A DNA stretch of 64,000 nt from Cyanidioschyzon merolae (Eukaryota): NCBI GenBank assembly GCA_000091205.1, contig AP006501.2. One strand, given 5' to 3'. The position numbers and the translations under genes were made by a program. Of this stretch, positions 51,016 through 55,650 are shown piece after piece. Numbering within the stretch: position 1 is the first letter of the stretch; each line of letters starts with the position of its first letter. A model generated the notes under the pieces. The model saw nothing but the letters and a program-made list of their open reading frames with translations. It had not been told where the DNA came from and searched no databases.

Positions 51016-52308
51016 TTGAAGATGCGGATCGCGAGAGGTGTTTTGTTCTGGCTGCTCTGTGTGAACTTTTGCTGGTGCCACTTATCCATCGGTGCGCTGC
51101 GGGCGGTACGAGCGATTTCCGTGTCTGAGGAAGTCTCGCTTCCAGGGTTTCGCCTCTTTCCTCGGGTTCCTCAGTCTGAGGCGAGTACTATTTTCTTTCG
51201 GGATCTGCTGCTCCCGAAAAAAACTTACAGTATCGACTGGAGCGCGGAAGCTTCGAGCCGATCGCTGACGAGTGGCTTGCGCAATGATAGAGGCACGTTT
51301 ACGACAAGCGAGGGAAACGTTACGTACGTGCAGACGTTGCGGGACGCTGACGGACACCTCTATGTGTGTCGTGTACCAGCAGATGAGCCTGCAACGCCCA
51401 ACAACGTTGAGACGGTATCCATGGATGTGGAATCGGAGCCTACCATCGATCTGGACGCGGCTCTGCAGAAACAGCTGAAGGACAAGTGCTTCTACCGGCA
51501 GGGAGGTTGGCGGGTGTTCGAGTTCTGTTTTCACAGGCACGTGCGCCATTTTCACTGGGAGAGACGGCGCTCGATGCCTGCAGAGCGCGAGCGAATTCGT
51601 GCGGAGATTGAACAACTTCTGAAGGAGCACGTTTTCCCCGAAGGCCCGAATGGCGAACCTGGTAGAAAACGTTTCCTGCGGCTGCTGATACAGGCTCAAC
51701 AAATACCACCTGACGGGAGCCTGAACCTCATCATCAAGGACGAGGTCTGCATGGGCATGTACGATGAAGCACTCGACCGCGAAAGGATACGTAACGGCAC
51801 GAATTTGATCACCAGTGGTGCCTTTTTCAGCGGGCGACGCTGGCAGGCACCCCCGCAAGCAACCAACGGTGCTGCGTCGCGCGTCGACCGTGGGTCGGAC
51901 GCTGAGTACCGCCTGGAATCCGATGGACGTGTGCTCCCAGTTGCAGGGGAAGGTATCGGAAGCGCCGTCGCTTACTTGGTGCAACCGTATACGAGAGACG
52001 GGGATCATTGCGACATAACAGGACGTCCACGCCGCACGATGGTACGCTACCGTTGCATTGAGGATGTTCCGCGGATTGCAATTTTCGATCCATCCCCCGT
52101 GGTAAGCTCGTTCATTGCCTCCGTGCATGAGCGAAGCACCTGCGAATACGACCTCGTTTTTGTGACGGATGCGGTCTGCTCACATCCAGCTTTTGTTTCA
52201 CCTGCACGCCATTCGGTGCCCGTTGTATGCGAACGCATGTCATCTGAGATGGAAGCGATAAACATTTCGCCGGGTAGCGCGCAGCATCCTGCTCTGCATC
52301 GTAGTTGA
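51016..52308 (+). CDS. OS-9/Yos9-like ER lectin with mannose-6-phosphate receptor homology (MRH) domain. It is secretory (signal peptide present).
   Basis: Signal peptide 'MKMRIARGVLFWLLCVNFCWC'. MRH-type cysteine and aromatic pattern 'CFYRQGGWRVFEFCFHRHVRHFHWE' and 'CDITGRPRRTMVRYRCIE...IASVHERSTCEYDLVFVTDAVC'. Confidence 0.6.
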   Translation: MKMRIARGVLFWLLCVNFCWCHLSIGALRAVRAISVSEEVSLPGFRLFPRVPQSEASTIFFRDLLLPKKTYSIDWSAEASSRSLTSGLRNDRGTFTTSEGNVTYVQTLRDADGHLYVCRVPADEPATPNNVETVSMDVESEPTIDLDAALQKQLKDKCFYRQGGWRVFEFCFHRHVRHFHWERRRSMPAERERIRAEIEQLLKEHVFPEGPNGEPGRKRFLRLLIQAQQIPPDGSLNLIIKDEVCMGMYDEALDRERIRNGTNLITSGAFFSGRRWQAPPQATNGAASRVDRGSDAEYRLESDGRVLPVAGEGIGSAVAYLVQPYTRDGDHCDITGRPRRTMVRYRCIEDVPRIAIFDPSPVVSSFIASVHERSTCEYDLVFVTDAVCSHPAFVSPARHSVPVVCERMSSEMEAINISPGSAQHPALHRS

Positions 52309-53048: not shown

Positions 53049-55367
53049 TTAACGCCATTGAATGATGCTTAGACCGTCTCGAATAGGCAAAATGACCTGC
53101 GTAACGCGTGCATCTTCCAGTACGTGTTGGTTAAAGGCATGAACCGCGTCCATGAGCTTCCGACTGCGTAGCGCGATGCGCTCTGCATGTTCGCCAAATT
53201 CAACATCCTCCATTTGGGCGTGTTTCTGCTTCCCGTAAACAGGCCGAAACAGAACATTATCGACAAGCAACGCACCATTCGGAGATAAGAGTCTATGATC
53301 CAGGATGAAATCAAAGTAGGTGATGTACCGGCGCTTGTCAGCGTCGAGATATATGAGATCAAAAGGCGCAACAGCTTGGTCGCGGAAGCGCTCCAGTACA
53401 TCCAAAACGGCGCCTCGGTGCAGCTCAATAGGCGCCAGCTGACCAGCAACACATTTGAAGAACTGCTCGGCGGTGTCTGCAGCGTTGGGGTCCTGCTCAA
53501 CCGTCACCACAGTTTGGACGTGGTTCGGACCCATGGCGCCAGCAAAACACAACGTTGCATAACCGGTAAACGTGCCCAGCTCGAGCACACGTTGCGCTCG
53601 CAACAGCCTAGCGACCGCGTGCAGGACGGCACCTTGGACAGGTCCACTCATCATGTGCGCGGCTTGCGGGAACTTGCGATGCGTCTCGGCCGCGAGCTCC
53701 CGCAGGATTGGTGCTTCGGTACCCCAGGGAGCGGTGCGGCTCATGGTCTGTGCGTACCAGTGCAGCTCATTGCTAGCGCTTGCGAGTGCAAGCTCGAGAC
53801 CTCGCTGGCACTCGGGGCTACAGCATCCCGAGAGCCGGTGGCGACAACGTGCGCACTGGATCATCCGTCGATGGCAAGGTACATGCGCACAGTGCAAGAC
53901 GTCCAGTGCTGGGGCACTGCACGTTTCACATCGGCTCAAAATATCATTCGTCACCGGGGTTTTGAGGCGTTCATCGAATACATAGATGGATCCTTTGAAT
54001 TTGGGATCCCATCCTTGACGATGCGCCTCTGCGGCGTACGAAACGACGCCGCCGGCAAGTCGCTCCACGCGTTGAAATCCGAGGCGGTTCTCCAGATAGG
54101 CAGCTGCTTTGACACAGCGAATTCCGCCTGTGCAAAAAGTGAGTATCCGTCGATCTCGAGGCTCGTTTGCTAGACGCGCCTCAAGCGCTTTCCAAGTCTC
54201 CCGGTAGGTGCGGGTGTTCAGGGGGCGAGCCTCAGCGCTCCCGAAAAATGTTCCAAGCTGCGTCTCGTAATCATTCCTCACGTCGATCAGAATGGCGTGC
54301 GGGTCTTCCAAAGCCTGATGCCACTCTGCCGGGCTCAGCTCTCGACCAGCTTGCGTCAGATCAAGCGGCTCCTTGAGACCGTCAGCGACGATTTTCTGCC
54401 GACAACGGATATGTAGGTTACGAAACGGAGGCTGTGCAGCGAATTGAGCTGCCGACAGCAACTGTGGATCCAAGTTCAGATAGACACCAGCGAGTTCAAC
54501 CAGGTACGGAGACTCGGCTTCGAGCAACCGCTTCAACGCGTCGAGGCTACGCAGAGGAACTGCGACCTGCGCGTTGATGCCCTCCGGTGCTATGTAGATG
54601 CGACCGCGAATCGCCAGTGGTTTCAGGTAGAAACGTAGACGAGAGGCGAGCTCTTCCGGCTCTGCAATGGGCACAAAGCGATAGAATGAAAGCATTTGGA
54701 TATCTTCGTCTACGGCATCGAGCTCCTTGGCTGGATAAAATGGCGGCAACATCCGTGCCCGCTGCCGTTCTCGTACCCCGTCGGTGTTTCGGGGCCGCTG
54801 TCGAAACTCCTCTATCATAGAATCGCTGATTTGCGGGTCGAAACGCAGATACAGAGGGGCTTTGGCTTGCCAAGCCTCTTTTAACAGTGCATCAGAGTCA
54901 ACGAGCTCCAGCGAGTCTGGCCTGTGTGCAACAAGGACAACGTGAAGCGGTGTGCCCTCGAGTCGTTGCAGCGCTGAGAAGCGTTCCCATATCCCTTTTC
55001 GAAGCAATTCAAGACTCGGCTCGGTTCCGGGAACAAAGATGCGTCCTTTCCGGTCACTGGCCGCCACCCGAAGAGCAGCTCGTAGTTGCGGTGCTAAATA
55101 GACCCGAAATACCCACTGGGCACCCTGGAACTCGCGTTCTGGTTCACGAGTGCTTCCGGTCACATAAGCCAGATCCGGCACGTTTGCTGATAGGTGCCGA
55201 AGCACGCTCCGCTGCGACCGGCGACGGCATGCGGCGACCTTGAGACCTCGCCGAAACGCAAAACAGAAAGTTTTCGAAGGCGAACTTGTCCAGAAAGCGA
55301 CGGGTTGTGCGAAAGCGACTGCCTTCAACTGTGTACACGGCGACATCCACAGCATGAGCAAACGCAT
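53049..55367 (-). CDS. Fusion protein: TrhO/YceA-type rhodanese tRNA U34 hydroxylase domain plus C-terminal class I SAM-dependent O-methyltransferase (CCoAOMT/TrmR family). It also has an N-terminal extension of about 190 aa.
   Basis: TrhO part: 'SFYRFVPIAEPEE', 'GRIYIAPEGINAQVAVP', 'IRCRQKIVADGL', 'HAILIDVRNDYETQLG', 'ILTFCTGGIRCVKAAAYLENRLGFQRVERLAGGVVSYA', 'GSIYVFDERL', and a Cys-rich tail. E. coli YceA reads 'YCTGGIRCEKASAWM', 'GKNFVFDERM'. OMT part: 'RVLELGTFTGYATLCFAG', 'VVTVEQDPNAADTAEQFF', 'FDLIYLDADKRRYITYFDFILDHRLLSPNGALLVDNVLF'. Confidence 0.85.
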   Translation of the reverse strand: MRLLMLWMSPCTQLKAVAFAQPVAFWTSSPSKTFCFAFRRGLKVAACRRRSQRSVLRHLSANVPDLAYVTGSTREPEREFQGAQWVFRVYLAPQLRAALRVAASDRKGRIFVPGTEPSLELLRKGIWERFSALQRLEGTPLHVVLVAHRPDSLELVDSDALLKEAWQAKAPLYLRFDPQISDSMIEEFRQRPRNTDGVRERQRARMLPPFYPAKELDAVDEDIQMLSFYRFVPIAEPEELASRLRFYLKPLAIRGRIYIAPEGINAQVAVPLRSLDALKRLLEAESPYLVELAGVYLNLDPQLLSAAQFAAQPPFRNLHIRCRQKIVADGLKEPLDLTQAGRELSPAEWHQALEDPHAILIDVRNDYETQLGTFFGSAEARPLNTRTYRETWKALEARLANEPRDRRILTFCTGGIRCVKAAAYLENRLGFQRVERLAGGVVSYAAEAHRQGWDPKFKGSIYVFDERLKTPVTNDILSRCETCSAPALDVLHCAHVPCHRRMIQCARCRHRLSGCCSPECQRGLELALASASNELHWYAQTMSRTAPWGTEAPILRELAAETHRKFPQAAHMMSGPVQGAVLHAVARLLRAQRVLELGTFTGYATLCFAGAMGPNHVQTVVTVEQDPNAADTAEQFFKCVAGQLAPIELHRGAVLDVLERFRDQAVAPFDLIYLDADKRRYITYFDFILDHRLLSPNGALLVDNVLFRPVYGKQKHAQMEDVEFGEHAERIALRSRKLMDAVHAFNQHVLEDARVTQVILPIRDGLSIIQWR

Positions 55368-55614: not shown

Positions 55615-55647
<33 letters not shown>
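55615..55647. repeat. (CAG)11 microsatellite, about 250 bp upstream of the TrhO-OMT start codon
   Basis: Direct read. Confidence 0.95.

Positions 55648-55650
<3 letters not shown>

Follow-up and report, generated by a model that had tools for sequence, protein, structure and literature searches.

The 64,000-nucleotide stretch of DNA analyzed here (the window) carries at positions 53049 to 55367, on the minus strand, a single open reading frame (ORF) in which the tRNA hydroxylase TrhO is fused to an O-methyltransferase (OMT). We propose, with moderate confidence, that its product is a nucleus-encoded, organelle-targeted (most likely plastid-targeted) bifunctional enzyme that would convert the wobble uridine of tRNA (U34) to 5-hydroxyuridine (ho5U34) and then to 5-methoxyuridine (mo5U34). 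This two-step enzyme is predicted because several features observed in the protein and its homologs agree: (i) the catalytic and tRNA-binding residues of TrhO are intact, (ii) the motifs of the OMT are intact, (iii) the OMT carries a basic insert, (iv) the fused architecture is conserved in its distribution among homologs, (v) homologs bear plastid-type targeting signals, and (vi) the published literature fits such an activity. The presence of mo5U in the host alga itself is a prediction only.

The ORF starts with ATG and comprises 772 codons without internal stops. Its translation is identical over the full length to XP_005539069.1 (BAM83033.1, UniProt M1VM75) of Cyanidioschyzon merolae 10D, and therefore the window is C. 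merolae nuclear DNA. The databases give this protein no other label than "hypothetical protein, conserved" or "Rhodanese domain-containing protein". The gene is divided into the following parts.

53049..55367, minus strand: whole gene, a 772-residue ORF plus stop codon (C. merolae 10D XP_005539069.1)
55125..55367, minus strand: presequence-like N-terminus, residues 1-81, predicted local distance difference test (pLDDT) <50; putative organellar, probably plastid, transit peptide
54822..55118, minus strand: N-module of predicted beta-grasp (ubiquitin-like) fold, residues 84-182, with nearly invariant R96 and R109
54390..54698, minus strand: UPF0176_N (acylphosphatase-like) domain of TrhO, residues 224-326, Pfam 4e-21, containing the basic beta-strand R321/R323
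54030..54335, minus strand: rhodanese domain of TrhO, residues 345-446, Pfam 4.7e-8
54114..54134, minus strand: CTGGIRC active-site loop, residues 412-418, where C412, T413, G415, and R417 equal E. coli C200, T201, G203, and R205
53805..53996, minus strand: Cys cluster of Rhodanese_C, residues 458-521, Pfam 1.4e-15, with eight Cys common to E. coli TrhO
53721..53774, minus strand: inter-domain linker, residues 532-549, flexible, pLDDT <50
53061..53717, minus strand: class I cation-dependent OMT (PF01596), residues 551-769, with the S-adenosylmethionine (SAM) motif L595-Y603 and E624, D675, D677, K678, D703, and N704
53157..53246, minus strand: family-specific insert, residues 708-737, a floppy loop (708-724) followed by a basic helix start (R730/R734/R736/K737) that aligns with K177-R181 of the bacterial enzyme TrmR

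An earlier note, made from the sequence of the window, had proposed such a 772-residue single-polypeptide fusion, with TrhO and OMT placed in pathway order within a eukaryote. Both proposals are borne out by the ORF and by the order of the Pfam matches: the domain search suggested there returned UPF0176_N, Rhodanese, Rhodanese_C, and Methyltransf_3. The motifs CTGGIRC (412-418), LELGTFTGY (595-603), and DADK (675-678) lie where the note had placed them, and DN (703-704) is in place too.

Our inference extends to the two catalytic activities, the tRNAs acted on, the plastid as the site of action in C. merolae, and what the beta-grasp module does. A presequence of ~80 residues would be removed first. 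The TrhO unit, consisting of UPF0176_N, rhodanese, and the Cys-rich Rhodanese_C, would use O2 to hydroxylate C5 of U34, yielding ho5U34 in the tRNAs of four-codon boxes (Ala, Pro, Ser, Thr, Val type; anticodon UNN). Methylation of the 5-hydroxyl to mo5U34 would fall to the C-terminal OMT, which depends on SAM and metal, and the short flexible linker may tether this domain so that the ionizable ho5U intermediate is not released. The N-terminal beta-grasp module, with its conserved Arg residues, probably helps to hold the tRNA or mediates oligomerization.

By every sequence test for membership, the first half of the protein is a complete, bona fide TrhO unit. Its UPF0176_N, Rhodanese, and Rhodanese_C matches all exceed the Pfam gathering scores, the NCBIfam TrhO equivalog NF001133 is matched with 187.9 bits versus a cutoff of 170, and the closest solved structures in a PDB search are TrhO 9j5o (5.8e-39) and Legionella Lpg2838. 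In E. coli TrhO, residues C200, T201, G203, and R205 of the CXGGXR loop, as well as K112 and R114 of a basic beta-sheet, are required for ho5U34 formation (Sakai et al. 2019, PMC6599085). The E. coli trhO sequence was taken from NC_000913 and aligned to the algal protein, whose TrhO core is 36% identical to it. The equivalents of K112 and R114 are R321 and R323, which are basic in 13/13 fused homologs examined, and all six essential positions (C412, T413, G415, R417, R321, and R323) are conserved in the same 13. Bacterial TrhO (E. coli YceA; PDB 9j5o, 4f67) shares with the algal protein the three domains, the CTGGIRC loop, the basic beta-strand residues, and the Cys cluster, but it is a stand-alone protein of at most about 350 residues, whereas the algal protein adds a presequence, an upstream beta-grasp module, and a downstream OMT. 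The other eukaryotic TrhO-core proteins compared have neither the fused OMT nor the beta-grasp module.

Different TrhO fusions were also observed in bacteria. In P0079, P0082, P0083, P0085, P0086, and P0089, several of them from Planctomycetota/Pirellulaceae, an RluA-family pseudouridine synthase (PF00849) is fused to the TrhO core, again linking TrhO with an RNA-modifying enzyme. In P0080 and P0087, from Acidovorax-like bacteria, TrhO is fused to a glutathione S-transferase domain, which might hint at a thiol or redox need in the hydroxylation chemistry.

Judged by its profile match and motifs, the second half is an entire class I cation-dependent OMT, and its motifs for SAM and metal are intact. 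Methyltransf_3 (PF01596) matches residues 551-769 with an E-value of 1.8e-30 and 106.3 bits versus a gathering score of 22, covering profile positions 7-201 of 204. Residues E596, G598, G602, E624, D675, D677, K678, D703, and N704 are invariant or nearly so among 33 homologs, and a PDB search with this half matched many class I OMTs. The profile and structure matches of the two halves far exceed what chance would give.

The known ho5U34 methyltransferase of this fold is Bacillus subtilis TrmR (YrrM; PDB 5zw3/5zw4), and its sequence used here was confirmed against 5zw3 (exact match, residues 1-217). The two proteins share the PF01596 Rossmann fold, the SAM motif, the Asp/Asp/Asn triad, the Lys136 equivalent (K678 in the alga), and a basic segment equivalent to R178-R181 before the last long helix. 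They differ in the motifs themselves (GTAIGYS/DAAK in TrmR versus GTFTGYA/DADK in the alga), and trmR lies in an operon with trhP1/trhP2 and is not fused to TrhO. In TrmR's crystal structure with an anticodon stem-loop, R178-R181 touch the phosphates of the RNA, and loop 164-185 is disordered when RNA is absent. In C. merolae, R734-S-R-K737 is in register with R178-R181, 12 residues before a conserved F/Y-N; loop 708-724 is the sole low-confidence part of the OMT domain in the AlphaFold2 model, and the algal loop insert is ~12 residues longer than that of TrmR in a direct pairwise alignment.

As a control, 40 of the nearest stand-alone OMTs were aligned and compared with 35 fused proteins. Arg178 is found in 31 of the 35 fused proteins, whereas the stand-alone OMTs have a gap at 177/178 (36-37 of 40) and Asp180 (32 of 40). 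Arg86 is likewise commoner among the fused proteins (28/35 fused versus 7/40 stand-alone). Arg90 occurs in none of the fused proteins, 32 of which have Ala there, while position 89 is Arg or Lys in 22. The Lys136 equivalent K678 is invariant, and the Arg181 equivalent K737 is Lys or Arg in 27/35. Three exceptions among the "stand-alone" sequences, P0136, P0160, and P0204, are probably fragments of fused proteins. On the evidence of these alignments, the domain resembles a catechol-type OMT with adaptations for RNA binding and would work like TrmR.

Several results weigh against the two-step plastid enzyme, some touching the methylation step and others the compartment. For the methylation step, the first concerns family membership. 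TrmR was defined by Firmicute neighbors with at least about 40% identity and specifically conserved Arg86, Arg90, and Arg178 (Ryu et al. 2018). We took as TrmR neighbors the Firmicute cluster within PF01596 at about 40% identity or more and E-values of about 1e-41 or better; the algal OMT falls short of this, with 25% identity and 59 bits to B. subtilis TrmR, versus 38% identity to a 213-residue flavobacterial OMT (Olleya). When solved structures were ranked by a family profile, SynOMT (132 bits), a Coxiella OMT (128), and COMTD1 (107) came far ahead of the TrmR-type entries (75, 75, 60, and 57), which stood below more than 20 other OMTs. By identity and profile rank, the domain is thus outside the Firmicute TrmR clade, grouped with SynOMT/Coxiella/COMTD1-type OMTs, and is not a TrmR ortholog; it is nearer to small-molecule catechol-type OMTs than to TrmR. 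The earlier note had called it TrmR/CCoAOMT-type, of which the CCoAOMT (PF01596) part holds and the TrmR part does not. It had also reasoned that a non-TrmR clade with a different substrate would speak against its proposal; the clade is indeed a non-TrmR one, so that this objection applies in part, and a different substrate is a less likely alternative taken up below. SynOMT (3cbg), Coxiella OMT (3tr6), human COMTD1 (2avd), and flavobacterial 213-residue OMTs have identical metal and SAM motifs and the top similarity (107-132 bits to the family profile, 36-39% identity), but they are stand-alone, lack the basic insert, and have small catechols as known or suspected substrates.

Of the three signature arginines, C. 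merolae keeps only Arg178 (R734), and the other two are replaced by Gln625 (Arg86) and Ala629 (Arg90). These positions vary even among validated or structural TrmRs (Ile86 in 8k1f; Met90 and Asn178 in 3ntv). The bacterial genome context adds to the same side. The Olleya OMT, the closest stand-alone relative, is encoded among kynurenine-pathway genes and not tRNA genes. Gene-neighborhood support for a TrhO-OMT link was rejected, as 0/80 bacterial trhO loci (mostly Bacteroidota, plus Candidate Phyla Radiation and Bdellovibrionales) had a PF01596 ORF within +/-6 kb even at E<1, with TrhO detected in 80/80 loci and the OMT hidden Markov model (HMM) detecting TrmR at 1.6e-26 as controls. With no PF01596 gene near the 80 bacterial trhO loci and no trhO near the closest stand-alone OMTs, it is the eukaryotic fusion alone that carries the functional link.

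The main alternative takes these data at face value: TrhO would make ho5U34, and the OMT would methylate a small catechol-like metabolite or another RNA or nucleoside hydroxyl, so that the fusion reflects co-localization or regulation and not consecutive steps. The catechol-type character of the closest solved and stand-alone relatives, the absence of R86 and R90 in C. merolae, and the place of the Olleya homolog beside 3-hydroxyanthranilate/kynurenine genes all speak for it, as does the DADK and DN metal site of catechol OMTs, which is kept in the alga, whereas TrmR has DAAK and is reportedly Mg2+-independent. We nevertheless regard this alternative as unlikely. Red algae and many secondary-plastid lineages share the order of the fusion and its short linker, and the TrmR-like basic insert and Arg86, absent from stand-alone relatives, have been acquired or retained in the fused OMTs. 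Besides, the phenol-like hydroxyl of ho5U adjoins a carbonyl, which would make it a plausible metal-chelating substrate.

The stand-alone relatives have features of their own. The genes immediately upstream of that of Olleya encode 3-hydroxyanthranilate dioxygenase, an ACMSD-like amidohydrolase, an aldehyde dehydrogenase, RidA, and an FAD monooxygenase (L005:600-6642), a cluster that suggests a hydroxy-aromatic substrate for this OMT. Near the stand-alone OMT gene of Pseudanabaenaceae, nothing tRNA-related was found. Human COMTD1 (2avd, 107 bits) belongs to the solved structures most similar to the fused OMT and ranks well ahead of TrmR; a TrhO homolog, TSTD2, is present in vertebrates too, and a TSTD2/COMTD1 pairing on tRNA is conceivable.

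The search for the same architecture in related taxa that the earlier note had recommended was productive. We collected 146 homologs with the N-module, TrhO, and OMT in this order from red algae, diatoms, bolidophytes, chrysophytes, and pelagophyte-like and brown algae, including Cyanidiococcus, Cyanidium, Pyropia, many diatoms, Triparma, Ochromonadaceae, Phaeothamnion, and Chrysophaeum. From Ectocarpus and Pylaiella, the only sequences recovered were fragments with TrhO alone, and the chromerid Vitrella has the TrhO-OMT fusion with no N-module detected. All lineages recovered with the fusion have red-type plastids.

The N-terminal extension of ~190 residues had been read in the earlier note as possibly an organelle-targeting sequence, and organellar tRNAs had been named there as possible sites of mo5U. 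The first of these readings is tenable for residues 1-81, which are presequence-like: they have no Asp or Glu before residue 65, are rich in Arg, Ala, Ser, and Leu, are not conserved among homologs, and are predicted to be disordered. It fails for residues 84-182, a conserved folded domain present in nearly all fused homologs, predicted as a beta-grasp fold (pLDDT 93.5, predicted template modeling score 0.83). An organellar role appears likely from the presequence and from the plastid signals of homologs. No Pfam model matches residues 84-182. An exhaustive profile search found this module in only 116 proteins among 1.84 billion cluster representatives, and it is always followed by TrhO wherever enough sequence continues; by this search, the N-module is found only in the TrhO-OMT fusion family.

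Some of the matching proteins have unusual arrangements. P0272 (1214 residues), which matches the N-module, has two TrhO-HMM stretches ahead of the OMT, and P0332 (751 residues) consists of the N-module and TrhO with ~250 further residues that have no OMT match. P0240 and P0277 have 11 and 7 short repeated profile matches to the N-module and none by local HMM, and these are probably low-complexity repeats.

Targeting signatures were recognized from established motif knowledge and not by a predictor, in a set of 108 full-length ochrophyte-type homologs having at least 60 residues before the N-module. A signal-peptide-like hydrophobic N-terminus is present in 40 of the 108, and in 20 of those 40 it ends in small-x-small/Phe (e.g., SVAS/FQP, VVTA/FSS, GASA/FQQ). 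A signal peptide with this ending is the known bipartite plastid signature of diatoms. Rhodophyte transit peptides usually start with an early Phe, and a Phe within the first 4-6 residues is found in Pyropia (MSAFAVV), Cyanidium (MRAGFV), and Cyanidiococcus (MLLRGF). On balance, the signals and the distribution of the family point to the plastid, which would also be the location in C. merolae.

The remaining results that weigh against the enzyme, most of them touching the compartment, are the following: the C. merolae N-terminus has no Phe in the first six residues, the plastid-free oomycetes reportedly keep the fusion (Phytophthora; Sakai et al. 2019, PMC6599085), and derivatives of the xo5U type (5-oxygenated uridines) were not found by mass spectrometry in Chlamydomonas (2022 review). 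In another alternative, the same two-step synthesis of mo5U acts in C. merolae on mitochondrial, dually targeted, or cytosolic tRNAs and not on those of the plastid. It would agree with the oomycete proteins, with a C. merolae presequence that is Arg-rich and has a predicted helix at 45-59 but no N-terminal Phe, and with the many homologs that have no recognizable signal peptide. We consider it improbable, given the plastid motif in the 20 ochrophyte homologs, the Phe-containing N-termini of the other red-algal orthologs, and a family distribution that follows red-type plastids; in addition, mitochondrial family-box tRNAs are generally reported with unmodified U34 (2022 review).

The functional linkage of the two enzymes through fusion has been described previously. 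Sakai et al. 2019 (Nat Commun 10:2858, PMC6599085) observed yceA-trmR fusions in Phytophthora sojae, P. ramorum, and Phaeodactylum tricornutum, which led them to choose yceA as the second hydroxylase, and they noted that eukaryotic trhO homologs suggest xo5U-type modifications in eukaryotes. Thus the Rosetta-stone argument of the earlier note concerns a real fusion, but it is not new. Their fusions contain the same two enzymes in the same order and support the same inference of functional linkage, and the diatom members found here are of the same kind. That paper notes the fusion alone, in organisms termed "bacterial species", and does not include red-algal members, the beta-grasp module, targeting signals, or the clade of the OMT. 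In its Supplementary Data 2, C. merolae, Phaeodactylum, and Thalassiosira are scored TrhO=1 and TrmR=0. Therefore, the published profile under-counts the methyltransferase where it is fused, and the red-algal fusion is unrecorded there. New in this work are a red-algal member unannotated until now, the third, beta-grasp module, the plastid-type signals, and a non-TrmR OMT with a TrmR-like insert.

The literature also offers candidate substrates for the predicted enzyme. An unidentified modification of U34 is present in the chloroplast tRNAs of Pro, Ala, and Val and perhaps in those of Ser and Thr (2022 review), and ho5U was detected in palm tRNA, with a TrhO homolog predicted to be chloroplastic. 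In our literature searches, no publication turned up that places mo5U or ho5U in plastid, algal, or C. merolae tRNAs.

Taken jointly, the data allow a broader and more tentative reading, for which we claim less than for the enzyme itself. The protein may install the long-unidentified family-box U34 modification of plastids, as mo5U in red-lineage plastids; it may have arisen in an early red alga by fusion, together with a beta-grasp domain specific to this lineage and serving tRNA handling; ochrophytes and chromerids would have received it along with the red plastid, and oomycetes would have kept it. A catechol-type OMT would then have been recruited independently to ho5U-containing tRNA, convergently with Firmicute TrmR. 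If the predicted activity of the enzyme holds, wobble chemistry of the xo5U type, considered bacterial, operates in eukaryotic organelles, and the U34 modification of those plastid tRNAs that each serve a whole four-codon box gains a named candidate. The plastid U34 question is as old as the first chloroplast tRNA sequences and matters for plastid codon usage and transgene design. Since the core idea is already published, the surprise is limited, and the value lies in a tractable route to this old question. C. merolae is nearly intron-free and permits targeted gene replacement, so the hypothesis can be tested directly in this alga.

The nearest bacterial relatives of both halves, among the matches listed (match lists, not a phylogeny), are mostly Bacteroidota (Flavobacteriaceae, Saprospiraceae, Cytophagales) and not cyanobacteria, which is unexpected for a presumed plastid-derived function. 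A cyanobacterial (endosymbiont) origin of either half is not supported by the same lists, where the nearest relatives are Bacteroidota and others.

Two further explanations carry little weight. It is very improbable that the rhodanese half is a sulfurtransferase or another non-hydroxylase and the protein unrelated to xo5U: nothing but older database labels ("predicted sulfurtransferase", "Rhodanese domain-containing protein") favors it, whereas the TrhO equivalog is matched above its cutoff, and the full three-domain architecture is kept with all hydroxylation-essential residues. An annotation or assembly artifact joining two genes has a negligible chance, with no observation in its favor, and the fusion is real, because the ORF is continuous in the window and on independent contigs, the orthologs are collinear, and diatom mRNAs are single.

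In detail, at least four hot-spring metagenome contigs, all independent, carry near-identical copies of the ORF, and its neighboring genes are kept there. The Cyanidiococcus ortholog is 73% identical and those of Cyanidium 52-55%, both collinear with the C. merolae protein, and diatom transcriptome ORFs flagged "type:complete" have both halves on one mRNA. A division into two genes by a stop or an intron, which the earlier note had named as a possible refutation, is contradicted by the same observations. The G+C content of the window is ~55% throughout.

Several minor features surround the gene. No tRNA genes were found within the 64-kb window. The gene is overlapped by antisense ORFs of up to 292 residues, among them the one at 53295-54173 (+), and they are assumed to be by-products of its high-G+C coding sequence. 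The neighboring ORF at 51016-52308 (+), listed with a TTG start and 430 residues long, adjoins the gene on the metagenome contigs as well; it has a weak, sub-threshold match to a glucosidase II beta-subunit-like (PRKCSH/MRH) domain (E 0.0058). On the other side, a perfect (CAG)11.3 trinucleotide repeat is located at 55615-55648, ~250 bp upstream of the start codon, in the intergenic or 5' region.

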